A stretch of DNA of 64,000 bases from Dehalococcoidia bacterium (GTDB taxonomy: Bacteria > Chloroflexota > Dehalococcoidia > Tepidiformales > Tepidiformaceae): contig JAJDYW010000018.1 of NCBI GenBank assembly GCA_022824925.1, positions 35 to 64,034 of the forward strand, in the 5' to 3' direction. Below the pieces are notes generated by a model, which did no database searches, had not been told where the DNA came from, and saw only the letters and a program-made list of their open reading frames with translations. Every line of letters starts with the position of its first letter. Position 1 is the first letter of the stretch. Below are positions 28,028 to 43,365 of this stretch, in pieces. The translations under genes and the position numbers were made by a program.

Positions 28028-29245
28028 TTACGCCTTTGCAATGCGCAACCAGCGCCGCTTCCCCACCCGCACGCGCGACCCCACCCGCGCCGGCGCGCGA
28101 CCGTCCCCCACGACCTCCCCATCGACCGACACCGCCCCCTGCTCGAACAGCCGCCGCGCCTCTCGCCGCGAGGGCGCCGCCCCCGCCTCCACGATCACGT
28201 CGATGAGTGCCTGCCCCTCGTGCGCCGGCGCCTCGGGCATCTCCTCCGGCTCCTCGCGCCGCTGCACCGTCCGCTCGAAGTGCGCCTCCGCTGCGGCCGC
28301 GGCCGCTTCGCCGTGCAGCTCCGTCACGATCGTCCGCGCCAGCCGTTTCTTCTCGACCATCGGGTCGCGCTCCCCCGCCGCCAGCCCTTCGATCGTCGCC
28401 GCCACCTCCCCCCGCTCGAGGCTCGTCGCCAGCTCGAAGTAGTTGGCCAGCACGCCGTCCGGGATCGACATCGCCTTGCCGTACTGCTCCTCGGGCGCCT
28501 CGTCCAGCCCGATGAAGTTCCCCGTCGACTTCGACATCCGCATGACGCCGTCGACCCCAACGAGGATCGGCATCGTCACGGGCACGTGCTTCCGTTGCCC
28601 GGCATCCTCCTGCAGCTTCCTGCCGGCCATCAGGTTGAAGAGCTGTTCCGTGCCGCCCACCTGCACGTCGCACTCCAGGGCCAGCGCGTCGTACCCCTGC
28701 ATGAGCGCGTAGAGGAACTCGTGCAGGTACACGGCGTCCCCCCGCCGGTGCCGCTCCCGGAAGTTATCTCGGGTCAACATCTCCGCCACCGTGAACTTCG
28801 AGGTCAACGCGATCAGATCGTTCAGGTCGAGCTTCCCGAGCCACTCCGAGTTGTGCCGCACCACCGTCTTCGATTCGTCGAGGATCTTCGAGGCCTGCGT
28901 GAAGTACGCCGCCTCGTTCGCGCGAATCGTCTCGCTGTCGATCTGCGGCCGGAGCTTGTTCTTGTCGGAGGGATCCCCGATGAGGGCCGTGATGTCCCCG
29001 ATCAGGAACACCGTCTCGTGCCCGAAGTCCTGGAACTGCCGCAGCTTTCGCAGCGGAACGGCGTGCCCCAGCGTCAGCGAGGTCGCCGTGGGGTCGATGC
29101 CCAGGTAGACGCGCAGGGGCCGGTCTTGCTCGAGAAGCTCCCGCAACTCCCCTTCGAACGCTCGCCGCAGCCCCTCGTCCCCGTACTCCACCCCGCTCAT
29201 GAGCACGAAGAGCTGCTCCTCCACCGGGGCCATGCGGCGGCTCAC
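28028..29245 (-). CDS. tyrS: tyrosine--tRNA ligase
   Basis: HIGH-type TLGHAVPL, KMSKS (RMSKSTGNF) and a C-terminal S4-like domain. The start overlaps the ribF stop. Confidence 0.95.
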   Translation of the reverse strand: MSRRMAPVEEQLFVLMSGVEYGDEGLRRAFEGELRELLEQDRPLRVYLGIDPTATSLTLGHAVPLRKLRQFQDFGHETVFLIGDITALIGDPSDKNKLRPQIDSETIRANEAAYFTQASKILDESKTVVRHNSEWLGKLDLNDLIALTSKFTVAEMLTRDNFRERHRRGDAVYLHEFLYALMQGYDALALECDVQVGGTEQLFNLMAGRKLQEDAGQRKHVPVTMPILVGVDGVMRMSKSTGNFIGLDEAPEEQYGKAMSIPDGVLANYFELATSLERGEVAATIEGLAAGERDPMVEKKRLARTIVTELHGEAAAAAAEAHFERTVQRREEPEEMPEAPAHEGQALIDVIVEAGAAPSRREARRLFEQGAVSVDGEVVGDGRAPARVGSRVRVGKRRWLRIAKA

Positions 29246-30180
29246 GAGAGCAACTCCCGCACATGCCGCACATCCCTGGCGATCTGCGCGCGCAGTTCCT
29301 CCGGCCCCGAGAACGCCTGCTCCGGCCGCACCCGGTCCACGATCGCGATCTCCATCCGTTCGTCGTACAGGTCGCCCTCGAAGTCGAGCACATGGGTCTC
29401 GATCGAGATGTGCCCCTCGTCGAAGGTCGGCCGCCGCCCGATGTTCGTCGCCCCCGGGAGCTCCCGCCCCGCCACCCTCGCCCGCGTGGCGTAGACCCCC
29501 AGCGCCGGCAGCGCGCGGTCGGCCGCCACCGAGAGGTTGGCCGTCGGGAACCCGATCGTGCGCCCCCGCTCGAAGCCGCGGACGACCGGCCCCGAGAGCG
29601 TGTAGTGGCGCCCCAGCAGCTCCGTCACCCGCCGCATGTCGCCCTCTCCCAGCGCCCGCCGCACCAACGTCGAGCTGTAGCGCTCATCGCCCGCCAGCAG
29701 CGGCTCGACCCGGACGACGTCGAATCCAAGCTCCTCGCCCGTGCGGAGCATCCGCTCGGGCGTGTCCGCCGGCGCGCCCCGCCCGAAGGCGGCGTCCGGG
29801 CCGAGCACCATCAGCTGCATGTTCAGCACCCGGTGGAACGCCTCCGCAAGCTCCTCCGCGGTCACCTCCGAGAGCTCCGACGTGAACGTCAGCGGCAGCA
29901 CCCAGGACACGCCCGCCTCCCGGATCAGCTGCAGCCGCTCCTCCAGCGAGGTCAGGTAGCTCGGCGTGATGTCGGGTCGCAGGACCGTGATCGGGTGCGG
30001 GTGCAGCGTGACCACCCCCGGCGCGAGCCCGCGCGCCTCCGCCTCCTCCCGCAACCGCGCAAGGAGGCCCTGGTGCCCGCGGTGGACCCCGTCGAACACG
30101 CCCATCACGAGCGCACTCCCCCCCGCGGGGGCGGCCGCCTCGAGCTGGGCCAGCGTCAGCGATGGCAGCGAGATGGTCAT
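29242..30180 (-). CDS. ribF: bifunctional riboflavin kinase / FMN adenylyltransferase
   Basis: VMGVFDGVHRGHQ, GFPTANL, and the riboflavin kinase C-terminus (HVLDFEGDLY). ATG 30180 is preferred. GTG 30222 is an alternative start. Confidence 0.9.
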   Translation of the reverse strand: MTISLPSLTLAQLEAAAPAGGSALVMGVFDGVHRGHQGLLARLREEAEARGLAPGVVTLHPHPITVLRPDITPSYLTSLEERLQLIREAGVSWVLPLTFTSELSEVTAEELAEAFHRVLNMQLMVLGPDAAFGRGAPADTPERMLRTGEELGFDVVRVEPLLAGDERYSSTLVRRALGEGDMRRVTELLGRHYTLSGPVVRGFERGRTIGFPTANLSVAADRALPALGVYATRARVAGRELPGATNIGRRPTFDEGHISIETHVLDFEGDLYDERMEIAIVDRVRPEQAFSGPEELRAQIARDVRHVRELLS

Positions 30181-30242
30181 GACGTTCGGGCGGGCGGTGC
30201 GGTCGCTCCCCCCTCTCCCCACTCTCGCACGATGCCGCCAGC

Positions 30243-30248
30243 TACACT
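30243..30248 (+). promoter_or_regulatory. -10-like TACACT, 6 nt upstream of ATG 30255 (leaderless-type)
   Basis: Read directly in the ribF / vanZ-like divergent spacer. Confidence 0.3.
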
Positions 30249-30254
30249 AGCCAC

Positions 30255-30641
30255 ATGCGCCTCCGGCTGCTGCTGGCGCTCCTCTGGCTCGCGGTCATGG
30301 TCGCGCTCGCGAGCACGCCCAGCCCCGAAGATCCCTCAAGCGGGCCCCTGGCGAACGCCGTCCATGCGATCCAGCACTGCGTCTTCGTGATCATCCTGCT
30401 CAGTGTCGCCCGAGCCGCCCTTCCGCGCCTTCCCGCGACCGTCCTGCTCGCTGTCTCCGCCTCCGTTGCCATCCTCGTGGGCGCCGGCCAGGAGTGGTAC
30501 CAGTCCCTGCTGCCCCACCGCACCTCCGACCCCACCGACCTCCTCTACGACGCTGCCGGGGTCGCGGGCGGACTGCTGCTCTGGATCGTCGCCGCGGCCC
30601 TCCGCGGTCGCCGCTTTCAGCGCCTGCTGGCGGCGGGCTGA
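30255..30641 (+). CDS. VanZ-like membrane protein
   Basis: 128 aa with 4 hydrophobic helices and the conserved-looking Q-E-W-Y-Q...D..D..YD segment (GQEWYQSLLPHRTSDPTDLLYDAAG). Confidence 0.55.
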   Translation: MRLRLLLALLWLAVMVALASTPSPEDPSSGPLANAVHAIQHCVFVIILLSVARAALPRLPATVLLAVSASVAILVGAGQEWYQSLLPHRTSDPTDLLYDAAGVAGGLLLWIVAAALRGRRFQRLLAAG

Positions 30642-31345
30642 GCCCGCGCCCGCACGCGGATGTCGCCCCACGCTTCCTCCTGCTCCACCTCGCAGGCCCC
30701 GTCCTTGATCAGTTCCAGCAAGGCGATGAACGTCACCACCACCTCGACCCGCGTCGTGCACTCCGCGATGGCCCGCCGGAACGAGAACGATCGTCCCCGC
30801 CCCCGCAGCCGCGCCTGCAACGCCTCGACCCGGTCCGCCAGGCTCACCGTGCTCCGCGTGACCGCTCCCGTCGGCTCCTCCGGCAGCCGTTCCAGCACCT
30901 CGATCATGATCGCGTAGAGCGCGTCCAGCGTGAGGCCCGCGAGCGCGTTGCCGGGGGGCGGGTCGGGGGGCGTGCCCCCGCGGGGATAGGTGCGCCACCC
31001 CGATGCCGCCCGCTCCCCCAGGGCATCCGCCGCTTCCCGGTAGCGCCGGTACTCGAGCAGCAGCGCCACCAGCTCCTCGCCGGGATCCTCTTCCTCCGCC
31101 TCCTCTTCGTCCTCCTCCTGCGGGGGAAGCAGCGCGCGCGACTTGAGCTGCAGCAGCTTCGCCCCGATCGACACGAACTCGGCCAGGGCGGCAGCGTCCA
31201 GGGAGTCGTCCGCGTGCACGGCTTCCAGGTACTGGTCGGCGACGGCGACCAGCGAGACCGTCGTGATGTCGAGGTCCTCGCGCTGGATAAGGGTCAGCAG
31301 AAGGTCGAGGGGGCCCTCGAAGGTGGGGAGCCGGATCTCGGGCAT
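30617..31345 (-). CDS. scpA: segregation and condensation protein A
   Basis: LPTFEGPLDLLLTLIQREDLDITTVSLVAVADQYL. ATG 31345 is preceded by GAGAGG. ATG 31465 is an alternative start. Confidence 0.85.
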   Translation of the reverse strand: MPEIRLPTFEGPLDLLLTLIQREDLDITTVSLVAVADQYLEAVHADDSLDAAALAEFVSIGAKLLQLKSRALLPPQEEDEEEAEEEDPGEELVALLLEYRRYREAADALGERAASGWRTYPRGGTPPDPPPGNALAGLTLDALYAIMIEVLERLPEEPTGAVTRSTVSLADRVEALQARLRGRGRSFSFRRAIAECTTRVEVVVTFIALLELIKDGACEVEQEEAWGDIRVRARAQPAASRR

Positions 31346-31506
31346 GGCCTCTCGCTGGCCGTCCCCCGCCGGGGCGCTTCCGCCGGCCTCGTCCCCCTGC
31401 CCCGGCTCCCCTGGTGTGGGGTCCGTCTGCTCGACGGCAGTGGTTCGACGACCGACAGGTGGCATGTTCTCGCGCTTCGCGCCTTCTGGCAACGCGTGGC
31501 GGCGCC

Positions 31507-31893
31507 TCACGCTTCCGCCGGCGAGGCCTCGTCCGCCAGGTCGGTGCGGAGCCGCCTGGCGTCTCGCAGGTAGATGTGCTTGATGTCCCGGGGCGCCGCA
31601 TCCGTATTCACATGCAGCAGGATGCGCACGCACTTCTCCATTGAGCCGGGCACGTTCATCTCGTGCCCGCAGAGGAGCGGCACGTACTTCCAGCCCTCCA
31701 GCCGCCGTGTCGCCTCCGCCGGGAACTCCGCGTTCAGGTCGGGCGAGGTCGTGAAGTGGCAGGAGGCGATGTCGTCCGCCGCCACGCCGTTCTCCTCGAC
31801 CATCGCCTGCAGCAGCTCGCGCGTCCCCTCCAGGATCGCCTCGCGCTCGTTCTCGTCGACCGTGATCGCTCCGCGGATACCGCGAACCGCCAT
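31507..31893 (-). CDS. aroH: chorismate mutase, AroH class
   Basis: MAVRGIRGAITVDENEREAILEGTRELL...HFTTSPDLNAEFPA...RILLHVNTD. Confidence 0.85.
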   Translation of the reverse strand: MAVRGIRGAITVDENEREAILEGTRELLQAMVEENGVAADDIASCHFTTSPDLNAEFPAEATRRLEGWKYVPLLCGHEMNVPGSMEKCVRILLHVNTDAAPRDIKHIYLRDARRLRTDLADEASPAEA

Positions 31894-31922
31894 GGACAGC
31901 CACTCCCCCGGGGACGTTCGGT

Positions 31923-32726
31923 CTACACGCCGTTCCCGCTGCGCCCCGTCACTCGCTCGACGTACGAGCGCACGCGATCCACGCAGCCTTCGACGCTCCC
32001 CCCCTCGATGGCCGCGATGATAGCAGAGCCCACCACCACGCCCTCCGCCACGCGCCCCACCATCGCGACCTGCTCCTCCGTCGAAACCCCGAACCCGACG
32101 GCGATCGGCAGTTCCGTATGCCGCCGGATGGTCGCGACCAGGTCGCCGACTTCCGGCGGCACCGCCGCCCCGCCCGTCGTCCCCGTGACGCTCACGCAAT
32201 AGATGAACGAGTCCGCGGCGGCGGCGACCTCCCCCATCCGCTCCGCAGCGGTCGTCGGCGCGATCAACGGCACGAAGCTCACGCCGTGCTCGGCGCACGC
32301 CCTGCGGAACGTCCCCGCCTCGTCGGCCGGCAGGTCGACCACGATGAACCCGTCCGCCCCCGCCGCCGCTGCGTCCGCCGCCGCCCGCTCCTCGCCGTAC
32401 GCCAGCAACGGGTTGTCGTACCCCATCAGGACGAGTGGAACCGTCAGGCCCCGCGCCCGCGCCTCCCGCACCATCCCGAGGCAATCCGCGAAGGTCACGC
32501 CCGCCGCCACCGCCACCTCGTTCGCGCGCTGGATCGTGGCCCCGTCCGCCAGCGGGTCGGTGAACGGCACGCCGAGCTCGATCACGTCCGCTCCCCCTGC
32601 TTCCAGCTCCAGCAGCATTGGCGCCGTCAGCGAAGGCTCAGGGTAGCCGGCCATGACGTACGCCACGAAGGCCGCCCGCCCTTCCCCTTTCGCCTGCGCG
32701 AATCGCGCCCGCAACCGTTCCGACAT
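31923..32726 (-). CDS. trpA: tryptophan synthase alpha chain
   Basis: AGADVIELGVPFTDPLADGATIQ, GFGVSTEEQ. Confidence 0.95.
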   Translation of the reverse strand: MSERLRARFAQAKGEGRAAFVAYVMAGYPEPSLTAPMLLELEAGGADVIELGVPFTDPLADGATIQRANEVAVAAGVTFADCLGMVREARARGLTVPLVLMGYDNPLLAYGEERAAADAAAAGADGFIVVDLPADEAGTFRRACAEHGVSFVPLIAPTTAAERMGEVAAAADSFIYCVSVTGTTGGAAVPPEVGDLVATIRRHTELPIAVGFGVSTEEQVAMVGRVAEGVVVGSAIIAAIEGGSVEGCVDRVRSYVERVTGRSGNGV

Positions 32727-32729
32727 TCC

Positions 32730-33512
32730 CTACGCCTCCGTCGCCACCAGGAGGGAGAAGCTGATCGCGTTGAACAGCACGTGGAAGGCCACGCTCTCCC
32801 AGAGATTGCCGCGCCGCCAGAACAGCCACGCGAGCGTTACGCCGATGATAAAGAACGGAATGAGGCTCCCCGGATCCAGGTGCACCCCGCTGAAGGTCAA
32901 CCCCGAGATCACCGCTGCCGGCCAGAACCCCCACCGCTGCAGCCCCCCGAAGACGAGCCCCCGGTAGAACACCTCCTCCGCTACCGGCGCCACCGCCACC
33001 ACCGCCACCCCCGTCAGGATCAGCGACAGCCGTTCGCGCACGATCTCCGTTGGCACGGTGCTCTCGGGCTGCAGCGCCTCGATGTCGAGCGCCGTCACGA
33101 TCGCCGCGTAGGCGATCACCATCAGGTAGGCGCCCAGCACTGCCAGCGCCGGTCGCCACAGCCCCCGCGCGCTGAACCCCGTCAGGCCCAGCCGCCGCCG
33201 GAGCGCCCCGGTGTCGTGCCGCGTGACCACCGCCACCACCCCGACAAGCAGGACGTTGAGCGCGATCGTCGTCGCCAGCCCCAGCGCGATCGTCGTCTGG
33301 TCCGCCCGGATCGTGGGTGGGTCGGGGAGCTCCTCGCCGGTGACCGCGGCCGCCAACCGCTCCCTCGCGAACTCCGCGATCGCTCCCGCCTGCTCGAATG
33401 CGTCCCCCGCGTCCCGTGACTGGAACTCCGCCCCCGAGACCTCCACCAGCCCCACCAGGAGCAGGTTCATCAGGAGGACGACCACCGCCCCCGCCAGCAG
33501 CCCGAACAGCAC
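32730..33512 (-). CDS. CPBP-family intramembrane glutamic endopeptidase
   Basis: Polytopic protein with APVAEEVFYRGLVF and ESVAFHVLFN motifs. Confidence 0.75.
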   Translation of the reverse strand: MLFGLLAGAVVVLLMNLLLVGLVEVSGAEFQSRDAGDAFEQAGAIAEFARERLAAAVTGEELPDPPTIRADQTTIALGLATTIALNVLLVGVVAVVTRHDTGALRRRLGLTGFSARGLWRPALAVLGAYLMVIAYAAIVTALDIEALQPESTVPTEIVRERLSLILTGVAVVAVAPVAEEVFYRGLVFGGLQRWGFWPAAVISGLTFSGVHLDPGSLIPFFIIGVTLAWLFWRRGNLWESVAFHVLFNAISFSLLVATEA

Positions 33513-33577: not shown

Positions 33578-34777
33578 TCAGAGCGTGACGCCCAGCGCCC
33601 CGGCGACCGTATGCATGTCCTTGTCGCCGCGGCCGCTCAGACCGATCAGCACGTCGCCGCCCTCGCCCAGCTCCCCCGCCAGGCGGATCGCCGGCAGGAT
33701 CGCGTGCGAGGGCTCCAGCGCGGGGATGATCCCCTCGCTCCGCGTGAGCCGCTGGAACCCCTCCAGCGCCTCCGCGTCGTCGGCCGCTATGTATTCCGCC
33801 CGCTCAGTCGTCTTCAGCCACGAGTGCTCCGGACCCACGCCCGGGTAGTCGAGCCCCGCCGAGATGCTGTGCGTCTCGAGGATCTGGCCCGCCTCGTCCT
33901 GCAGCAGGTAGGTCCGCGTCCCGTGCAGGACCCCCGGGCTGCCCGCGACGAGGGTGGCTGCGTTCCGGCCCGGCGCGGCCAGCCCCTCGCCCGCCGCCTC
34001 CACGCCCACCAGCCGCACGGGGTCGTCGATAAAGGGGTGGAACAGCCCGATGGCGTTGCTCCCCCCGCCCACGCAGGCGACCGCCACGTCGGGCAGGCGG
34101 CCCGCCTGCTCCAGCATCTGCGCGCGCGCCTCCTGCCCGATGACCGCCTGGAAGTCGCGCACCATCGTCGGGAACGGGTGCGGCCCGATGGCCGAGCCGA
34201 TCAGGTAGTGCGTCGTGCGCACGTTCGTCACCCAGTCCCGCATCGCCTCGTTGATGGCGTCCTTGAGCGTGCGGCTGCCCGAGTCCACCGGCACGACCTC
34301 CGCCCCCAGCATCTTCATGCGGAACACGTTCAGCGACTGGCGCTGGATGTCCTCCGTCCCCATGTAGACGACGCACTCGAGGTTCAGCTTCGCGCACACC
34401 GTCGCCGTCGCCACGCCGTGCTGCCCCGCGCCCGTCTCCGCGATGATGCGGGGCTTCCCCAGCCGCTTCGCCAGCAGCGCCTGCCCGAGCGCGTTATTGA
34501 TCTTGTGGGCGCCCGTGTGCGCCAGGTCTTCCCGCTTCAGCCAGATTCGAGCCCCGCCCACCTCCGACGTCAGCCGCTCGGCCAGGTACAGCGGCGTGGG
34601 CCGCCCCGCGTAGTGCCGCTGCAGGTCGGCCAGCTCCAGCTGGAAGGCGGGATCGCGCCGTGCCGTCTCGTATGCCTCCTCGAGCTCCTCGTGCGCCGCC
34701 ACCAGCACCTCGGGGATGTAGCGCCCGCCGAACTCGCCGAACCGCGGGGAGAGGTCGCTCCCTGTCTCCGTGCTCAT
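33578..34777 (-). CDS. trpB: tryptophan synthase beta chain
   Basis: [38 protein letters not shown] 34777 is aa 205 of the track ORF. Confidence 0.95.
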
Positions 34778-35511
34778 CGTCCTGTTCCCTTCGCGGCGCG
34801 GATGAACGCGCGCACCTTCTCGATGTCCTTGACGCCGTCCGTCTCGACCCCGCTGGAGACATCGACCGCCCACGGGTCGACCGCCTCCACCGCGTCCGCC
34901 ACGTTCCCGGGCGAGAGCCCCCCCGCCAGCATCAACGGCAGCCGCCCCGCGACCTCCGTCGCCACGGCCCAGTCGAACGTCTCGCCCGTGCCGCCACGCG
35001 CCGACGCCGACCCCGTGTCCAGCATGATCCCCGCCGCCGCGCCCGGCCTCGCCGCGTCGATCACGTCGTCGGCCGTCGTGTCGGGGTGAACATGGATCGC
35101 CTTCAGCACGGGCGGCCGCACCTGCCGCACGAACTCCTCGTCCTCGCCGCCCGAGAGCTGGATCAGCTCCAGCCCCGCGGCCTCCGCGATCTCGTTCGCG
35201 TCTTCGACCTCCTGGTCGGCGAACACGCCCACGAGCAGGGGGCGCCAGCGCGCCAGCGCGTCGTCGATCGCCTCGTTCCAGGCCCCGAACCAGCTCGCGC
35301 CCCGCACCTCGCCCCGCCCCGGCCCCTCGATGCGCGCCACGTCCGGGCTGCGCCGCTCCTCCCGCACTGCCTCGATGATGTCGTAGCACTGCTGCGGCGT
35401 GACCTGCCGCCGCGACTCCGCGAACATCAGCCCGATGAAGTCCGCGCCCGCCTTCATCGCCTCGCGCGCCGTCTCCGCGTCGCGCACCCCGCAGATCTTG
35501 ACCCGCGTCAT
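34774..35511 (-). CDS. trpF: phosphoribosylanthranilate isomerase
   Basis: [14 protein letters not shown]...ADFIGLMF...[12 protein letters not shown]. Its stop overlaps the trpB ATG (ATGA). Confidence 0.9.
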
Positions 35512-36311
35512 CGTCCCCGAAGCTCCGCGATCATGGCCGCCGGGTCCGCCGCCCGCATGAGCGCCTCCCCCACGAGCACCGCCGTCGCCCCCACTCCCTC
35601 GAAGCGCGCCACGTCCTCGCGCGTGTTGATGCCGCTCAGCGCCGCCAGCATTGCCTCCGCGGGCGCGCCCCCCGCCAGCCGGTCGGTCGTCCCCAGGTCG
35701 ACCTCGAAGCTGCGCAGGTCACGGTTGTTGATCCCAACCAGCCTCGCCCCCTCCGCCCCCGCTCGCTCCATCTCCTCCGCGCTGTTCACCTCCACCATCG
35801 CCTCCATCCCCAGCTCCCGCGAGCACCCCAGCAGGCGCGCCAGCGTCTCGTCGTCGAGGCAGGCCACGATCAGGAGGACCGCATCGGCGCCGTGGGCGCG
35901 CGCCTCCAGCAGCTGGTACTCGTCGATGAGGAAGTCCTTGCGCAACAGCCCCGGACGCGCCTCGCCCAGCGCCCCGACCGCCTCCCGCGCCGCCCGCAGG
36001 TCATCCAGCGTCCCCTTGAACCACGTCGGTTCCGTCAGCACGGAGATGCCCGCCGCTCCGCCCTGCGCGTAGCGCAACGCCTGCTCGCCCGCGTCCATCC
36101 CCGGCGCGATGTCGCCCTTGCTCGGCGAAGCCCGCTTGATCTCCGCGATCACCGCCGTCGGCGACTCCGCCAGGCGCGCCACGAAGTCGATCGGCGGTGC
36201 GGCCGCGGTCGCGGCGCGCTGCAGCTCGCCGGCCGTGACCGCGGCCTTCGCCTCGGCCACGTCCTCGCGGCGCTTCGCCACGATCGTCTCGAGGATGCTC
36301 GGCGAGCTCAC
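35508..36311 (-). CDS. trpC: indole-3-glycerol phosphate synthase
   Basis: [42 protein letters not shown] 36311 overlaps the trpD stop. Confidence 0.9.
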
Positions 36312-37324
36312 GCGACCTCCTGTGTCAGCCTCACGTACGACTCCGCCACCTCCCGCGCCCGCCCCGACGCGATCGACTCCCGCGCGAGCGCCGCCCCCTC
36401 CGCGAAACCGTCCGCCAGCCCCGCCGCCCAGCACCCCGCCCCCGCGTTCAGCACGACGAAGTCCGCGACCGGGCCACCCTCCCCCGCCAGCACCGCCCGC
36501 AGCGTCTCCGCGTTCTCCTCCGCCGATCCCCCCGCCACCGCGTCGAGCGTCCCCGCCTCGACCCCGAACGTGTCCGGCGTCAGCTCCTCCTCGCGCAGCT
36601 CGCCCCCTTCGAGGATCCAGGCGTGCGTGGGCGCCTCGGGACTGATCTCGTCGAGCCCGTCCGCCGAGTGCACGACCACCGCCCGTTCGAGCCCGCGGAT
36701 GCGGAAGGCCTCCGCGATCAGCGGCCCCAGCCGCGGCGACCCCACGCCCGTGAGCTGCGCCCGCGGCCCCGCCGGGTTCGAGATCGGCCCCAGCACGTTG
36801 AACATCGTGCGCGTGCCCAGCTCCCGCCGCGGGCCGCCCACGTGCCGCATCGCCGGGTGGAAGCGCTGCGCGAACAGGAACCCGAAGCTGCACCCCTCGA
36901 TCACCTTCGCCACCGCTTCGCCCCCGATGTCGATGCGCGCCCCCAGCGCCTCCAGCAGGTCCGCCGACCCGCACTTCGAGGAGGCCGCGCGATTCCCGTG
37001 CTTGGCCACGCGCGCTCCCGCCCCCGCCACCACGAACCCCGCTGCCGTCGACACGTTGAACGTATCCGCCCCATCCCCGCCGGTGCCACACAGGTCGACC
37101 ACGTTCCCCGCCGCGATCGGCTCCGCGTGCTGTTCCATCACCGCCCAGCAGGCGGCCACGACCGCAGGCGTCTCGCCGTACTGCCGCATCCCCGCCAGGA
37201 ACGCCCCGATCTGCGCCGGGGTCGCCTCCCCCGACATGATCGTCTCGAGCGCCGCCGCTGCCGCCGCCGGCTCGATGCCGCCCCGGTCGAGCAGCGCCCC
37301 GATCGCCTCCTGGATTGCCGTCAT
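36308..37324 (-). CDS. trpD: anthranilate phosphoribosyltransferase
   Basis: DLCGTGGDGADTFNVSTAA, KHGNRAASSKCGSADLLEALG. ATG 37324 overlaps the trpG stop (ATGA). Confidence 0.95.
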   Translation of the reverse strand: MTAIQEAIGALLDRGGIEPAAAAAALETIMSGEATPAQIGAFLAGMRQYGETPAVVAACWAVMEQHAEPIAAGNVVDLCGTGGDGADTFNVSTAAGFVVAGAGARVAKHGNRAASSKCGSADLLEALGARIDIGGEAVAKVIEGCSFGFLFAQRFHPAMRHVGGPRRELGTRTMFNVLGPISNPAGPRAQLTGVGSPRLGPLIAEAFRIRGLERAVVVHSADGLDEISPEAPTHAWILEGGELREEELTPDTFGVEAGTLDAVAGGSAEENAETLRAVLAGEGGPVADFVVLNAGAGCWAAGLADGFAEGAALARESIASGRAREVAESYVRLTQEVA

Positions 37325-37908
37325 CGCGTCCACGTCCCTCCCCTCAGGTCGAGGAAGTTCTGCAGCAGGTCCTTCCCGTGCTCCGTCGCGATCGATTCCG
37401 GGTGGAACTGCACGCCCTCGACCGTGAAGCGTTCGTGCCGTACGCCCATGATGACACCGCTCTCCGAGCGCGCCGTCACCGTGAGCGACTCCGGCAGGCT
37501 CGGCGGGTCGGCCGCCAGCGAGTGGTAGCGCACCGCCGTGAACGGGTCGGGCAGCCCCGCGAAGACGCCCTGTCCGTCGTGGCTGATGGACGAGGTTTTG
37601 CCGTGCTTGATCTCCCCCGCCCCCACGATCTCCCCGCCGAACGCCTCCGAGATGCACTGGTGTCCGAGACAGACCCCCAGCACCGGCGTCCGCCCCGCGA
37701 AACGCCGCACGATCTCCGTGGAGATCCCCGCTCCCGCCGGCCGCCCCGGCCCCGGCGAGATCACCACGCGCTCCGGGTCCAGCGCCTCGCACTCACCGAC
37801 CGTGACCTTGTCGTTCCGGTGCACCACGATCTCCGCGCCCAGCTCCGAGAGGTACTGGTAGAGGTTGTAGGTGAAGCTGTCGTAGTTGTCGATCAGGAGC
37901 GTCGTCAT
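37321..37908 (-). CDS. trpG: anthranilate synthase component II (glutamine amidotransferase)
   Basis: LLIDNYDSFTYNL, ISPGPGRP, GVCLGHQ, GVQFHPES. Confidence 0.9.
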   Translation of the reverse strand: MTTLLIDNYDSFTYNLYQYLSELGAEIVVHRNDKVTVGECEALDPERVVISPGPGRPAGAGISTEIVRRFAGRTPVLGVCLGHQCISEAFGGEIVGAGEIKHGKTSSISHDGQGVFAGLPDPFTAVRYHSLAADPPSLPESLTVTARSESGVIMGVRHERFTVEGVQFHPESIATEHGKDLLQNFLDLRGGTWTR

Positions 37909-38237
37909 CGGTCCAGCCCCCCTTCCGCCGCCAGGTCCGCCGCCACCTCCCGCAGCGCCACCGCGAGCTCCTCGGGCGTGTAGCCGAAGCCACGCCGGTC
38001 CAGGTGGAACTTCTCCGCCAGGTAGGCCGTGTCGACCGCCCCCGGCGAGCCCAGGTCGAGCGGGTAGGCCGTCCCCGGCTCCCCCAGCAGCACGACCAGG
38101 AAGTAGCCGTCCCCGGCCCCGCGCGCGTAGGGCGCCGTCTCTTCCAGCAGCGGCACGAGCGCCAGGTCGATCGCGTTCGCGCGGTAGAAGCGCGCCGCCA
38201 CGTGCGTGACCGCCTTCGCGGGCGCCGTCCCCGTCAC
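37905..38237 (-). CDS. hypothetical protein (110 aa) embedded in the trp operon
   Basis: Protein-like composition. Its GTG start overlaps the HAD stop and its stop overlaps the trpG ATG. I recognise no family. Confidence 0.5.
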   Translation of the reverse strand: MTGTAPAKAVTHVAARFYRANAIDLALVPLLEETAPYARGAGDGYFLVVLLGEPGTAYPLDLGSPGAVDTAYLAEKFHLDRRGFGYTPEELAVALREVAADLAAEGGLDR

Positions 38238-38890
38238 GATGTCGCCCCCGCGGCCACGCGGCGCACGTATGCCAGCACCTCCGAGGGGTGCGCCGCCAGC
38301 AGGTCCGGCGCCTCCGCCTCCAGCCGCTCCGGGGCCAGCGACCCCCAGGTCGCCCCGATCGCGTGGCAGCCCGCCGCCCGCGCCGCCTTCACGTCCGCGG
38401 GCGTGTCCCCCACGTACGCGATCTGCGAGGGCTCATCGAGCACCATCCGCTCCATCGCCACGAACAGCGGGTCCGGCTCCGGCTTGTGGCGCTCGCAGTC
38501 GTCGTGTCCCACCACCGTCGCGAAGCGGTCCAGCAGACCCATGCGCGTCAGCTCGCCCGTCGCTCCCCACGAGATCTTCGAGGTCACCACCGCCAGGTCG
38601 AGTCCATCCGCACGCATCGCGTCCAGCGTCTCGACGATGCCCGCGAACGGCTCCGGGTCGAAGTCGATCGCGTAGTAGATCTCCCGGTAGCGCTCGGCGA
38701 AGCGCAGCCAGTCGTCGCCCATCAGCTCCCGTGAGAGCGCCTCCAGCGTGCGACCGTTGTGCTCCCGCCAGACCCGCTCCGGGTCGGGCCTCGTGCCGAG
38801 GCAGTCCTCGTACGTCCCCGCCAGCGCTTCCATGCGCCCCGGAAGCGTGTTCAGCACCGTGTCGTCCAGGTCCCAGAAGACGGCCCTCAT
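38234..38890 (-). CDS. HAD-IA family phosphatase
   Basis: Motif I FWDLDDTVLNT, motif II VVTSK, motif IV VGDTPADVKAARAAG. ATG 38890 is aa 202 of the track ORF. Confidence 0.8.
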   Translation of the reverse strand: MRAVFWDLDDTVLNTLPGRMEALAGTYEDCLGTRPDPERVWREHNGRTLEALSRELMGDDWLRFAERYREIYYAIDFDPEPFAGIVETLDAMRADGLDLAVVTSKISWGATGELTRMGLLDRFATVVGHDDCERHKPEPDPLFVAMERMVLDEPSQIAYVGDTPADVKAARAAGCHAIGATWGSLAPERLEAEAPDLLAAHPSEVLAYVRRVAAGATS

Positions 38891-39750
38891 GGCGAAGCCT
38901 CCGGCCGCGGGATGCCCCGCTCCGCGAACACGTCCTCCATCACCGGCCACGCCGAGAGCGCCGCCGGGAAGCCCGCGTAGACGGCCACCATCCGCAGCGT
39001 CTCGACTACCTCCTCCGGTGTCGCCCCGTGGTTCAGCGCCCCGTTCAGGTGCGACCGCAGCTGCGCCGTCCGCCCCGTGAGCGCCGCCAGCATCGCCACC
39101 ACCTCCAGGCTGCGCGTGCGCCGGTCGAGGCGGTCCGTGCCCCAGACCTCCCCCAGTGCGAAGTCGACCACATCGTCGGCGAGCTCCGGGGCCCGCGCCC
39201 GCAGGCCCGCGTGGCGCTCGTCCGGGTCGCCCCCGCCCGAGAGCGTGCGCAGGACGTCCCGCCCCGCCTCCCGCCTCGACGCGAACGGCCCAGCCGCATC
39301 GGTGTCGGTTTCGGCCCCCATCTCGCGTTGGAGCGCGCTCAGGATGGCGGCGCTGTCGTCGCGTGGCCGGGCCAGCCCGAAGGCGGCGAGGATGCCCGCC
39401 CGGACGTGGTCGTCCATGGCCACGTCCGCGAGGGCCTCGGGCGCGCTCCACAGGGCCTCGGTTCCGTCCCCCGGCGCCGGCTCTCCCTCCCACTCGCTCG
39501 TCGCGAACAGGTTGAAGATCATGTGCCCGTCACCGTCCGGGATGAACAGCGTCTCGTAGAACGCCTCCTCGATCGCCTCCACCGTCACCCCCATGCCCCC
39601 GAGGATCGCCGCCATCCCCTGGTCGACATCCTCGTGCTCCGGCAGGAGGTCGCCGCCCGGGAGGCCCCACGCCTCCTCCCCGCTCCCGCGCAGGAGGAGC
39701 AGCTCCCCCTCCCGCTCGAGGATCGCCGCCAGGTGGATTCGCTGCGCCAT
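38887..39750 (-). CDS. fusion: degenerate Nudix-fold domain + carboxymuconolactone decarboxylase (AhpD/PcaC-like) domain
   Basis: N-terminus: WGLPGGDLLPEHEDVDQGMAAILGGMG, a Nudix-box scaffold lacking REx2EE. C-terminus: LDRRTRSLEVVAMLAALTG...HLNGALNHGATPEEVVETLRMVAVYAGFPAA. ATG 39750 is preceded by GGAGGG. Confidence 0.7.
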   Translation of the reverse strand: MAQRIHLAAILEREGELLLLRGSGEEAWGLPGGDLLPEHEDVDQGMAAILGGMGVTVEAIEEAFYETLFIPDGDGHMIFNLFATSEWEGEPAPGDGTEALWSAPEALADVAMDDHVRAGILAAFGLARPRDDSAAILSALQREMGAETDTDAAGPFASRREAGRDVLRTLSGGGDPDERHAGLRARAPELADDVVDFALGEVWGTDRLDRRTRSLEVVAMLAALTGRTAQLRSHLNGALNHGATPEEVVETLRMVAVYAGFPAALSAWPVMEDVFAERGIPRPEASP

Positions 39751-39754
39751 GTCC

Positions 39755-41236
39755 CTACCCTCCAACCCGCTCGGGCGCCTGCTGGGCCGCCGCCAGCTCG
39801 GCCTGGTCGATGGCTCGTTCGAGCGCCAGCGTCTTGTTGATGCTCTCCTCGTATTCCGCTGCCGGTTCCGAGTCGTACACGATGCCCCCGCCGGCCTGCA
39901 GGTAGGCGTTCCCGTCCTTCACCACCATCGTGCGGATGGCGATGCAGGTGTCCAGGCTCCCGGCGAAGCTCGCGTACCCCACCGCCCCCGCGTAGATGCC
40001 CCGCTTCTCCTCCTCCAGGTCCGCGATGATCTCCATCGCCCGCACCTTCGGCGCCCCCGACACCGTGCCCGCCGGGAACACCGAGCGGAACGCGTCGTAC
40101 GGCGTGCGGTCCTCCCGCAGCCGGCCGGAGACGCGCGAGACGATGTGCATCACGTGCGAGTACCGCTCGATCTCCATCAGCTGGTCGACCCGCACCGTGC
40201 CCGGCTCCGCCACCCGCCCCACGTCGTTCCGTCCCAGGTCCACCAGCATGATGTGTTCGGCCCGCTCCTTCTCGTCTCCCAGCAGCTCCTCCGCGAGCGC
40301 GTCGTCCTCCTCGGGCGTCGCCCCCCGCGGCCGCGTCCCCGCGATCGGGTGCGTCGTCACGACCCCGTCCTCCACCCGCACGAGCATCTCCGGGGATGCG
40401 CCCACGATCTGGAAGTCGTCCAGGTCCAGGTAGAACATGTAGGGCGAGGGGTTCACCGTCCGCAGCTGCCGGTAGATCGTGAACGGATGCACCGAGGTCG
40501 GGCGCCGGATGCGCTGCGACGGCACCGCCTGGATGACCTCCCCCCCGACCACGTCCTCGCGGATGCGCTCCACCATCAGCTCGTAGCCCTCCCGCCCCAC
40601 GTTCGAGACGCCCTGCGCGCTCGCCAGGGCCACCTCCTCCACCTCCTCGACCGGCAGCGCCAGCGGCCGGCTCAGCCGCCCCACGATCCCGTCGATGGTC
40701 GCCGCCGCCGCCGCGTACGACGCCTCGATGTCGCCGTCGAGGCGGCAGTGTGCGACCGCCCGGATCGTGTGGCGCACGTGGTCGAACACGACCATCGAGT
40801 CGCACAGCAGGAACATCGCCTCCGGGATCCCGACGGGGTCCGCCTCGTTCGAGGGCACGCGCGGCTCGAAGTGGCGGATGGCCTCGTAGCTCACGTATCC
40901 CACCGCCCCGCCGGTCAGGCGCGGCAGCCCCGGCAGCTCGACCGCCTGCAGTCCCGCCAGCGCCTCCTGCAGCGGAACGAGCGGGTCGCCGTCGTAGGCC
41001 TCCCCCGGACCCGTGCGGATGACCTGGTACGGGTTCGCCCCGATGAACGAGTAGCGCGCCAGCCGCTCGCCCCCCTCCACCGACTCCAGCAGGAACGAGT
41101 GCCGCCCCTCGCGCACCTTCAGGTACGCCGAGACGGGCGTCTCGAGGTCGGCCGCCACCTCGCGGTAGACCGGCACGAGGTTCCCCCCGCCCGTCTCCGC
41201 GAGCACCTTCACCTCGTCGAGCGCTGGGTGCAGCAC
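39755..41236 (-). CDS. trpE: anthranilate synthase component I
   Basis: LLESVEGGERLARYSF, SPYMFYLDL, GTVSGAPKVRAMEII, GGGIVYDS. Confidence 0.95.
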   Translation of the reverse strand: MLHPALDEVKVLAETGGGNLVPVYREVAADLETPVSAYLKVREGRHSFLLESVEGGERLARYSFIGANPYQVIRTGPGEAYDGDPLVPLQEALAGLQAVELPGLPRLTGGAVGYVSYEAIRHFEPRVPSNEADPVGIPEAMFLLCDSMVVFDHVRHTIRAVAHCRLDGDIEASYAAAAATIDGIVGRLSRPLALPVEEVEEVALASAQGVSNVGREGYELMVERIREDVVGGEVIQAVPSQRIRRPTSVHPFTIYRQLRTVNPSPYMFYLDLDDFQIVGASPEMLVRVEDGVVTTHPIAGTRPRGATPEEDDALAEELLGDEKERAEHIMLVDLGRNDVGRVAEPGTVRVDQLMEIERYSHVMHIVSRVSGRLREDRTPYDAFRSVFPAGTVSGAPKVRAMEIIADLEEEKRGIYAGAVGYASFAGSLDTCIAIRTMVVKDGNAYLQAGGGIVYDSEPAAEYEESINKTLALERAIDQAELAAAQQAPERVGG

Positions 41237-41238
41237 GG

Positions 41239-42255
41239 TCAGCGGCTCCCCGGCGGATTGGCCAGGTAGTCGATCGCCATCGCGTCCCGCACCATCGCGA
41301 TCGTCTCCTGCGCCACCGCCCGCGCTCGCGAGGTCCCCGACTCGAGCGCGTCCCGCACCTCGCCCATGTGCGCCTCGTAGTACGCGCGCCGCTCCCGGAA
41401 CGGGTCGAGCAGGTTGTTCAGGGCGATCGTCAGCTTCTGCTTCACCTCCACGTCGCCCACGCGCCCCGCGACATAACGTTCTTTCAGGTCGTTCACCTCG
41501 TCCACGTCCGGGTTGAAGGCGTCGTGGTACATGAAGACCGGGTTCCCTTCCACGTGCCCCGGGTCCGTCGCCCGCAGCCGCGTCGGGTCGGTGAACATGC
41601 TTCGCACCTTCTTCGTGACCGTGTCGGCGTCGTCGCGAAGCTCGATCGTGTTGTTCAGCGACTTGCTCATCTTCGCCTGGCCGTCGAGCCCCACCAGCCG
41701 CGGCACGCGCCCCACCAGCCCCTCGGGCTCAGGGAACACCTCGCGGAACTGGCGGTTGAAGCGCCGCGCCAGCTCGCGCGTCATCTCGATGTGCGGCAAC
41801 TGGTCCTCGCCGACCGGCACCAGGTGCGCCCGCGGCATGAGAATGTTCGCCACCTGCATCACCGGGTAGGTGAAGAACGCCACCGGCACCGATTTCTTCC
41901 CGAAGTCCGCCATCTCCGCCTTCAGCGTGGGGTTGCGCTGCAGCATCCCCAGGGGCAGGTACCAGCTCAGCCACGTCGTCAGCTCGGCGTGCTCCGGCAC
42001 GAGGCTCTCGATTACGAAGCAGCTCTCCTCCGGGTCCAGCCCCACCGCCAGCCAGTCCAGCGCCACCTGCCAGACCGACTCGCGCACGCGCTCGAAGTCG
42101 TCCGCGTAGTCCGAGACCTGGTAGTCCGCGATCAGGAAGTGGCAGTCGTACTCCCGTTGCAGGCGGACCCAGTTCTCGAGCGCCCCGGCATAGTGGCCCA
42201 GGTGCAGCGCCCCGGTCGGACGAATGCCGGTCAGGATTCGCTTCCGCTCGCTCAT
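41239..42255 (-). CDS. trpS: tryptophan--tRNA ligase
   Basis: TGIRPTGALHLGHY (HIGH), KMSKSL, 338 aa. Confidence 0.95.
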   Translation of the reverse strand: MSERKRILTGIRPTGALHLGHYAGALENWVRLQREYDCHFLIADYQVSDYADDFERVRESVWQVALDWLAVGLDPEESCFVIESLVPEHAELTTWLSWYLPLGMLQRNPTLKAEMADFGKKSVPVAFFTYPVMQVANILMPRAHLVPVGEDQLPHIEMTRELARRFNRQFREVFPEPEGLVGRVPRLVGLDGQAKMSKSLNNTIELRDDADTVTKKVRSMFTDPTRLRATDPGHVEGNPVFMYHDAFNPDVDEVNDLKERYVAGRVGDVEVKQKLTIALNNLLDPFRERRAYYEAHMGEVRDALESGTSRARAVAQETIAMVRDAMAIDYLANPPGSR

Positions 42256-42292: not shown

Positions 42293-42967
42293 TCAGGCGG
42301 CCGCCGTCTCGTAGCAGCCGTCGAGGAACCCCAGCAGCCGCTCGCTCGCCCGCTCCGCCGCCGCGACGACGGCCTCGCCGTCCTCGCACAGCTCCTCGAT
42401 CGCCGCCAGCTCCGAGCCCGAGTGGGCCACGTCGGAGACGAGGTGCACGGAGAAGAACTCGAACTGCCCGGGCAGCAGGTCGTAGTGCTCCGTGAGCCCC
42501 TTGATCTTCTCCCAGGCCACGCCCGGCACCTGCGACTCGTAGGCGTAGAGCGCCGCCAGCGCTTCCGCCACCGGTGCGTTCGCCGAGACGTCCGCGAAGT
42601 GCGCGATCAGCGCCGCCGTCTGCGGGTGCGGCTCCGCCCCCTCGACTTCCTCGCGGGAGACGCCCAGCGCCGCCGCGAACTCCAGCCAGAGCGCGGGATG
42701 GTTCCGCTCGCCGTGCTCCTCGTCCCAGAGGTTTTCCAGCAGGAGCTGCCGGACTCCCGGCGACTCCGTGCGCGCGTGGATCGCGCTCAGGAAGCGCGGA
42801 AACGCCCGCTCGAAGTGGTAGTACTGGCGCGCATAGTCCTGCAGGCGCTCCTTCTCCAGCGTGCCTGCGCTCCACGCCTGGTAGAAGGGGTGCGCCAGCA
42901 GCGACCGCTCCGCGATCGCCTCCCGCAGCCGCGCCCCCAGCGCCGTGCCCGTGTCCGTCATCGTCAT
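42293..42967 (-). CDS. CADD/CT610-like heme-oxygenase-like di-metal oxygenase (TenA/PqqC superfamily; candidate pABA synthase)
   Basis: HPFYQAWSAGTLEKERLQDYARQYYHFERAFPRFLSAIHAR, LLLENLWDEEHGERNHPALW, ALYAYESQVPGVAWEKIKGLTEHY, LLGFLDGCY. From memory, these run colinear with Chlamydia CT610. ATG 42967 is preceded by GAGGAGGG. Confidence 0.75.
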   Translation of the reverse strand: MTMTDTGTALGARLREAIAERSLLAHPFYQAWSAGTLEKERLQDYARQYYHFERAFPRFLSAIHARTESPGVRQLLLENLWDEEHGERNHPALWLEFAAALGVSREEVEGAEPHPQTAALIAHFADVSANAPVAEALAALYAYESQVPGVAWEKIKGLTEHYDLLPGQFEFFSVHLVSDVAHSGSELAAIEELCEDGEAVVAAAERASERLLGFLDGCYETAAA

Positions 42968-43073: not shown

Positions 43074-43108
43074 AGAAAAAAAACCCGCCGTCCCAAAGGA
43101 CGGGGGTT
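43074..43108 (-). terminator. intrinsic terminator of the T-box leader (CCCCGUCC-UUUG-GGACGGCGGG + U8)
   Basis: The minus-strand hairpin is followed by eight U (A-run 43076-43083 on the plus strand), immediately 3' of the T-box motif. Confidence 0.8.
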
Positions 43109-43365
43109 CCCGCGGTGCCACCTTCATTCCCCGGCGCGACACGCCGGAGCGCTCAGCGGGCGCCTCTCCGTTGCCGGACGCAGCGCCCGGGGCCGCTAAC
43201 GGGGCCCATTCCGCCCCCGCCTACCCACCGTTTCCGGCTTCGGCGAGGGAGCTCCCGGGTCCATTCGCCGCTCGCGTGCCTGCCGGGCTTCCACCGTTCC
43301 CGGTTCGCTGCAAGGCCGCCTGAGCGGGTACTCCTCCCGATCGACGCTTCTTCGATTCGATTGTC
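43074..43365 (-). ncRNA. T-box riboswitch leader, predicted tryptophan (UGG) specificity
   Basis: The minus strand reads AAUGAAGGUGGCACCGCGG (43109-43127), against the consensus AAUUAGGGUGGUACCGCG. A candidate specifier GAA-UGG-A lies at 43260-43266. A GGUGGAA distal-loop-like element lies near 43290. The terminator follows. Confidence 0.8.

Follow-up and report, generated by a model that had tools for sequence, protein, structure and literature searches.

The window analysed here, a 64,000-nucleotide (nt) stretch of a Dehalococcoidia genome of the family Tepidiformaceae (GenBank assembly GCA_022824925.1, contig JAJDYW010000018.1, positions 35 to 64,034), carries a tryptophan operon in which three genes that are not part of the pathway lie between trpE and trpG, the genes for the two components of anthranilate synthase. 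Few pathways are understood as well as tryptophan biosynthesis, and in the textbook picture trpE and trpG stand side by side. Read along the minus strand, the operon comprises, in this order, a Trp T-box, CADD, trpS, trpE, a gene for a fusion of a Nudix-like domain with a gamma-carboxymuconolactone decarboxylase (CMD) domain, a HAD-IA phosphatase gene, an open reading frame (ORF) of 110 amino acids (aa), trpG-D-C-F-B, CPBP and trpA. The fusion gene (287 aa; 38887..39750, minus strand) was characterized by domain searches, an alignment of homologues, AlphaFold and Foldseek; the phosphatase gene (218 aa) occupies 38234..38890 and the 110-aa ORF, hereafter the orphan, 37905..38237, both on the minus strand. 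The initial annotation, made from the window's letters, had described three non-trp genes at this position, and the ORFs proved to be real, with the domain make-up given there. Comparison across the class identifies this insert as the family-specific version of a variable accessory cargo slot located at the junction of trpE and trpG in many Dehalococcoidia.

The anthranilate synthase genes themselves are ordinary. The trpE gene (component I; 39755..41236, minus strand) matches TIGR00564 with 575.2 bits (cut-off 517.7), and trpG (glutamine amidotransferase component; 37321..37908, minus strand) matches TIGR00566 with 245.7 bits; they are the sole TrpE-family gene and the sole TrpG/PabA-type gene of the genome. 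Both proteins score above or near their family cut-offs, and the LLES feedback motif is kept in TrpE. The end of trpE reads ...GGA GGG TAG and is followed by four nucleotides (GGAC) and then the ATG of the 287-aa ORF. The stop codon of this ORF overlaps the ATG of the 218-aa ORF (ATGA), the 218-aa ORF ends in an overlap with the GTG of the 110-aa ORF (GTGA), and the 110-aa ORF overlaps the ATG of trpG (ATGA), as does trpG with trpD. All junctions claimed for the insert, namely the 4-nt gap after trpE and the three overlaps, were thereby confirmed. The insert does not differ from its flanks in GC content, which lies at 0.70-0.76 throughout.

The operon is headed by a probable Trp T-box leader (43093..43353, minus strand), which matches RF00230 with 69.7 bits (E 1.9e-14); this is below the Rfam gathering score of 93, and the match spans the full model (positions 1-219). 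We found GAA-UGG-A at the specifier position and, at the end of the leader, a terminator-like stem with a T-run (43103..43088, minus strand), the only convincing one in the 11.7-kb stretch that was scanned. The orthologous leaders of four relatives score 98-116 bits. Within the insert, simple scans of the same stretch gave no promoter-like or terminator-like sites, and neither a second T-box nor another RNA element was found there. The UGG specifier, the terminator-like stem and the overlapping stop and start codons agree with the earlier proposal that the genes lie behind a Trp T-box and are translationally coupled, and we infer that the insert is co-transcribed with the trp genes. The window's sequence is present in sponge metagenomes; three metatranscriptomes of a related study contained only short pieces of at most 90% identity, which came from conserved genes of other organisms and are uninformative on co-expression.

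The first inserted gene encodes two domains of different visibility. Its N-terminal half is barely detectable by sequence search: NF006530 is the only match (E 2e-4), and the window's protein gives no PF00293 match at E ≤ 0.01, a few of its homologues and the versions from sister families reaching the Pfam cut-off. An AlphaFold model built on 49 homologues gave a predicted local distance difference test score (pLDDT) of 86-96 for the N-terminal domain (residues 1-130; 39361..39750, minus strand), and Foldseek returned MutT-type Nudix hydrolases for it (PDB 3r03, E 6e-8; template modelling scores of 0.75-0.83). By this model, the fold of residues 1-130 is Nudix. Like MutT-type enzymes (PDB 3r03, 3ees/3ef5, 3a6t), the domain partly keeps the G-x5-E element; unlike them, it has lost the metal ligands of the REx2EE motif. 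The box reads GGDLLPEHEDVDQGMAAILGGMG, with M-A and L-G replacing R-E and E-E, so that ...MAAILGG... stands at the place of REUXEEXG in the expected GX5EX7REUXEEXGU. These glutamates are missing from the window's protein and from all 49 aligned homologues, and judged by the motif the Nudix domain is catalytically dead.

The second half is a CMD (AhpD-like) domain (residues 188-273; 38932..39189, minus strand) that gives a complete match to PF02627 (68.5 bits, cut-off 23; model positions 1-84 of 84). Among solved structures, PDB 2af7 (E 1e-17) and 4g9q (E 8e-24) are nearest. In the alignment of homologues, the domain has a strongly conserved ALNHGAT...YAGFPAA motif and many invariant residues, which is consistent with a working active site; it looks intact and is predicted to be the catalytic domain of the fusion. 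It shares with the CMD family, including PcaC, the ...HG.T...YAG.P.A core, and differs in being fused to a dead Nudix domain. It also falls below the PcaC equivalog cut-off (TIGR02425, 67.4 versus 155.7 bits), and its neighbours are trp genes, with no genes of the protocatechuate pathway among them. Residues 150-287 contain no cysteine, so the CxxC of the AhpD branch is absent and the domain is not expected to act as an AhpD-type peroxidase. Altogether, the description of the gene as a Nudix-fold domain fused to a PcaC/AhpD-like domain, with a box that has lost its catalytic glutamates, is supported by the PF02627 match, the structural comparison and the alignment.

The 218-aa protein encoded by the second inserted gene carries all four HAD motifs (DLDDT, TSK, the K of HKPEP, and GDTPAD). 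It matches HAD_2 with 109.6 bits and exceeds the cut-offs of the IA subfamily models TIGR01509 (36.8 versus 29.4) and TIGR01549 (30.3 versus 23.3), in line with its earlier designation as a canonical HAD-IA phosphatase. The function-specific HAD models all remain below cut-off: PGP with 93.9 of 180, PpaX with 89.8 of 218 and the AHBA-associated phosphatase with 110.2 of 246.65 bits. Among solved structures, phosphoglycolate phosphatases and AlnB (PDB 2yy6, 2nyv, 4ex6) come closest. The protein resembles the phosphoglycolate phosphatase/PpaX/AlnB group in its motifs and its generic subfamily matches, and departs from it in missing the function-specific models and in being dispensable in two genera. 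The gene is cleanly absent from two of the eight genera of the family compared here (genomes G015 and G134), with no orthologue elsewhere in those genomes, and is an optional member of the cassette.

For the orphan, neither Pfam nor NCBIfam gave a match, and a Pfam search at E ≤ 10 over 48 homologues gave nothing consistent. A profile of these 48 homologues, searched against 1.84 billion representative proteins, returned 17 hits, comprising the orphan's own family, fragments of it and three spurious matches; the latter were long, weak alignments to Ig/Kelch/FG-GAP repeat proteins and were discarded for this reason. The structural model (pLDDT 76) is of the alpha/beta type, with four strands preceding the helices, and a Foldseek comparison with PDB entries gave no fold match (best E 0.53). 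The alignment contains 30 invariant columns at a mean column identity of 70%. Among the invariant residues, E33 and A41-G42-D43-G44-Y45 lie in loops or segments that the monomer model does not place (pLDDT below 50 at positions 6-10 and 33-41). The overlap of the orphan's stop codon with the start of trpG (ATGA or GTGA) is kept in all eight relatives in which the start was located. The gene was found in every sampled genome of the window's family (11/11), and none of the 190 further class genomes sampled had a credible match. The 110-aa protein, for which the initial annotation could name no family, is accordingly a new family without detectable relatives that is confined to the window's bacterial family.

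We compared the insert with the trp operons of related genomes, sampling 11 Tepidiformaceae-like genomes from eight genera; homologues with a named source belong to Tepidiformaceae and Dehalococcoidia. All 11 genomes and all eight genera carry the cassette, and the 18-kb neighbourhoods have the same gene order throughout. Across genera, identity to the window's copy is 58-80% for the orphan, 60-79% for TrpD and 65-80% for TrpC, so by this measure the orphan is conserved to the same degree as these two pathway enzymes; the corresponding values are 42-74% for the Nudix-CMD fusion and 44-68% for the HAD phosphatase. The fusion and the orphan would form the core of the cassette. Judged from these comparisons, the insert is old, under selection and vertically inherited, and not a recent accident. 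Recent horizontal transfer was ruled out by the uniform GC content and the synteny common to the family, and an assembly artefact by the identical gene order in the single-contig genomes G151 and G056.

The genome G151, a sister species of the same genus, shows how the cassette behaves when the operon is broken up. Here, about 12 kb are inserted after trpE (L013 10573-17781, L028), and trpG has kept its cassette. Upstream of the displaced block, which runs from the cassette through trpGDCFBA, neither a T-box nor any other Rfam element was detected. The insertion includes a gene for a leucine-rich-repeat surface-type protein of 2402 aa. In another genome of the family, G199 (L020), the orphan gene, trpE, trpC and trpF appear to be split by frame changes, for which assembly error is likelier than decay.

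The count of three inserted genes holds for the window and not for most other genera of the family, which have four. In these, a stand-alone, degenerate Nudix-like ORF of 129-130 aa directly follows trpE; it was seen as an ORF or a domain match in four genera, the remaining genera showing a gap that fits its length. Absent from the window's genome are this ORF and two further genes found in other genera (L015-L020). One is a TrpB2 paralogue (451 aa) with which their operons begin, right behind the T-box (L017 16364-15009), and the other is a 155-aa ORF without family match that lies between CADD and trpS (L017 14307-13840).

Beyond the family, the distance between trpE and trpG was measured in the 124 genomes of the class that have both genes on one contig and strand. 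The two genes are adjacent in 51 of them, and at least 450 nt separate them in 64, spread over 18 of the 39 measurable families. A search of the class with the Nudix-like domain alone, in which match coordinates were compared with those of TrpG, yielded weaker matches in other families, 19 of which lie directly upstream of trpG; a twentieth was obtained through the fetched junction of a further family. A degenerate Nudix domain directly upstream of trpG is therefore found in 20 further genomes from eight other families, or in nine families including the window's. In an alignment of the box region, no junction copy retains more than one of the three REx2EE glutamates, and in these families the Nudix gene always directly follows trpE.

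The partners of the Nudix domain change from family to family. It occupies the junction alone in families f7 and f19, together with a P-loop kinase (AAA_33 or chloramphenicol-phosphotransferase-like) in f11, f26 and f30, with an S-adenosylmethionine (SAM)-dependent methyltransferase in f19 and f53, and with DinB_2 in f38; in f22, it is followed by a separate tandem-CMD protein. A single canonical Nudix with an intact box was recovered in genome G190, away from the trpE-trpG junction, where it follows TrpB2. The order at this locus (L041 4249-10287) is TrpB2, the canonical Nudix, further genes, CPBP, an AroH-type chorismate mutase and DAHP synthase.

Other families fill the same junction with Nudix-free cargo: one to five tandem genes of the short-chain dehydrogenase/reductase (SDR) family, MacB-type ABC pairs, Band-7 pairs, or a methyltransferase with an SDR. 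In G020 (L057), five tandem paralogous SDR genes spanning about 4.2 kb fill the junction, and related families have one or two. A MacB-type pair, consisting of an FtsX/MacB_PCD permease and an ATPase, lies between trpE and trpG in two further families, represented by G062 (L056) and G123 (L062), and a Band-7/SPFH pair was seen in another family (L063).

Foreign genes in trp operons are as such a known phenomenon, and inserted genes have been catalogued in comparative studies. In Streptomyces, for example, the small non-pathway gene trpX/TrpM is embedded in the trp operon (PMC5036795). It resembles the insert described here as a non-pathway ORF that is conserved within a trp operon and presumably co-expressed. 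In contrast, the window's genes encode different proteins and lie between the two anthranilate synthase subunit genes, and the slot in Dehalococcoidia varies in content throughout the class, a dead Nudix being its recurring element. Our literature search on Nudix genes between trpE and trpG, or on the layout of Dehalococcoidia trp operons, found no paper. Two features are new: the orphan, as a protein family of its own, and a pseudo-Nudix that recurs with exchangeable partners and separates the two anthranilate synthase genes.

The explanation that we favour for this arrangement, with low confidence (a probability of about 40%), is that the cassette is co-expressed under tryptophan limitation and serves the processing of a small molecule, built around a dead Nudix domain that would bind a ligand. 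At low levels of charged tRNA-Trp, the cassette would be made together with anthranilate synthase. The constant element would be the MutT-like Nudix fold which, lacking the metal-binding glutamates, may bind a nucleotide-like or aromatic ligand instead of acting as a pyrophosphatase. The Nudix part would recognize or sense this ligand, and the attached enzyme would modify it, that is, the CMD domain in the window's family and a kinase, methyltransferase or DinB-type domain in sister families. This division into binding module and effector is suggested because the Nudix stays constant while the effector changes between families. A precedent for a non-catalytic Nudix domain is provided by the NrtR regulators, in which it serves as a sensor. 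By analogy, the window's domain would bind and not hydrolyse; unlike NrtR, the protein lacks a DNA-binding domain, and its predicted ligand-binding part is paired with an enzyme domain of a kind that varies between families.

The HAD phosphatase might then contribute a dispensable extra step, and the orphan, which would always be produced in step with TrpG, could be a partner, specific to this family, of either TrpG or the cassette. The least certain step is the target. A ligand tied to the anthranilate synthase end of the pathway is suggested by three observations: the Nudix gene stands right after trpE, the cassette is retained with trpG, and the canonical copy of G190 lies among aromatic-pathway genes. 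This ligand may be a small molecule that arises at, or is aimed at, the conversion of chorismate via anthranilate to phosphoribosyl-anthranilate; candidates are side products, labile intermediates and antimetabolites. The role of the cassette would be pathway housekeeping or protection, and not a step of tryptophan synthesis.

Several points weigh against this proposal. The mechanism is built on domain logic, its ligand, substrate and interaction all being predictions. The chemistry of the CMD domain is not assignable from its sequence, given its score below the PcaC cut-off and its lack of the AhpD cysteines. The stand-alone Nudix was lost in the window's genus and the HAD gene in two genera, so parts of the cassette are dispensable. 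The same junction holds SDR arrays, MacB-type ABC pairs and Band-7 pairs elsewhere, which fits a permissive insertion site, and the gene string continues past trpA into scpA, ribF and tyrS, so that membership alone does not imply a common function.

These points lead to the main rival, namely that the junction merely tolerates inserts whose functions are unrelated to tryptophan. Hitch-hiking genes of this kind might persist because their removal would disrupt the operon, or because control by the T-box gives them sufficient expression. The frequency of long junctions (64 of 124 genomes with at least 450 nt) and the great diversity of their cargo, from SDR arrays, ABC exporter pairs and Band-7 pairs to methyltransferases, speak for it, as do the dispensability of HAD and the stand-alone Nudix in some genera, the further foreign genes elsewhere in the operon (CADD, the 155-aa ORF and CPBP), and the co-directional run into scpA, ribF and tyrS. 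It does not, however, readily account for an orphan that exists nowhere outside this context, yet is conserved like the pathway enzymes, nor for a dead Nudix that recurs at exactly this junction in nine families despite the swapping of its partners. The cassette also remained with trpG when the operon of G151 was disrupted, and the canonical Nudix of G190 again stands beside aromatic-pathway genes. Overall, we regard pure hitch-hiking as somewhat unlikely.

A second alternative would dispense with a separate small-molecule pathway: the orphan, the dead Nudix or both might bind TrpE/TrpG as regulatory or stabilizing subunits, with the fused enzymes recruited to the complex. The overlap of the orphan's stop codon with the start of trpG, found in the window and in all eight relatives, implies near-equimolar synthesis, and the orphan's invariant residues fall in segments unplaced by the monomer model, as expected of an interface; the Nudix gene, moreover, always comes directly after trpE. 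Against this, about 40% of the class genomes have adjacent trpE and trpG without such a partner, and TrpE and TrpG look ordinary, the feedback motif included. We therefore consider a role as mere accessories of anthranilate synthase rather improbable. A still more doubtful idea is that the dead Nudix is a dedicated adaptor at the anthranilate synthase step. It would either dock on TrpE/TrpG or bind a chorismate- or anthranilate-derived or nucleotide-like ligand there, and would present the ligand to interchangeable enzymes, with the orphan as a new family-specific subunit that pairs one-to-one with TrpG.

Folate synthesis offers a third alternative. The canonical folate route employs a Nudix enzyme (FolQ/NudB) and then a phosphatase, and no dephosphorylation step is needed in the PTPS-III bypass. 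The initial annotation had speculated on a side branch derived from folate/para-aminobenzoate (pABA) or chorismate, with phosphatase steps, that rides on the operon. In concrete terms, the Nudix protein and the HAD phosphatase would remove phosphates from dihydroneopterin triphosphate or, with CADD, contribute to folate synthesis in some other way. This was not borne out, and we hold it to be very unlikely. In its favour, a CADD-family gene stands at the operon head (42293..42967, minus strand; TIGR04305 234.5 bits, cut-off 200; PF14518, PF03070) and encodes a heme-oxygenase-like enzyme that is probably a self-sacrificing pABA synthase. The genome has no PabB, and FolK and FolP are present in it. 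However, the catalytic glutamates of the Nudix are lost in every family member, and FolB, the user of the dephosphorylated product, is absent from all seven family genomes searched. FolE and a PTPS-family gene are present in all seven (FolE2 was also checked; the PTPS-family motif in G151 reads GECEPLHGH), a pattern of the PTPS-III bypass, the subtype being putative. With FolB absent and FolE, the PTPS-family gene, FolK and FolP present, the pyrophosphatase and phosphatase steps on dihydroneopterin triphosphate are probably not required. In addition, HAD was lost in two genera that keep CADD, and dead-Nudix cassettes also occur in sister families whose operons lack CADD.

A comparable mixing of the two pathways, which also counts in favour of the folate idea, is known from Chlamydia, where a patchwork of Trp and folate enzymes includes a bypass by TrpF and RibA, and TrpF and CT610/CADD were both recruited into folate synthesis (PMC4161248, PMC9522330). 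The window shares with it a CADD-family gene associated with trp genes in an organism without PabB; it differs in that its family has FolE and no FolB, and in that nothing ties the inserted genes to folate. CADD itself is a plausible pABA source because the genome has a single TrpE-family gene and no PabB, which does not implicate the inserted genes. Finally, RNA-end repair by a PNK-like kinase, HAD and Nudix was set aside, as it leaves the CMD and DinB partners unexplained and has no supporting context.

Whichever explanation applies, about half of the sampled Dehalococcoidia genomes separate trpE and trpG by cargo, and in nine families this cargo includes a dead Nudix with varying enzyme partners. 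A cassette that works in the pathway, be it in damage control, in protection from antimetabolites or in regulating anthranilate synthase, would give this classic pathway a new layer, and it would be a clean case from nature of a pseudoenzyme used as an exchangeable recognition module. Should the adaptor idea be true, a pathway regarded as fully known would gain an undescribed modular protein component across a whole bacterial class. Mere hitch-hiking would, in turn, reveal an unusually stable insertion hot spot within an essential operon. The results are also of use for annotation, where the cassette ORFs are presently labelled "carboxymuconolactone decarboxylase family" or "hypothetical".

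The remaining genes of the operon, all on the minus strand, lie on both sides of the interrupted pair. Upstream of trpE is trpS, the gene for tryptophan--tRNA ligase (41239..42255; TIGR00233 281.7 bits), which is the sole copy of the genome as judged by a single tblastn match. Downstream of trpG lie trpD, trpC, trpF and trpB (33578..37324) and, further on, trpA (31923..32726; PF00290 289.3 bits). Past trpA, the co-directional string runs on with scpA, ribF (riboflavin kinase/FAD synthetase) and tyrS (28028-31903), and the scans gave no obvious terminator there. Between trpB and trpA lies a gene for a CPBP (Rce1-like) intramembrane protease (32730..33512; PF02517 71.4 bits). One or two tandem CPBP copies were seen at this position in all family relatives checked (L013-L020), and other families of the class likewise have CPBP genes in the setting of trp or aromatic-pathway genes (L037, L039, L041).

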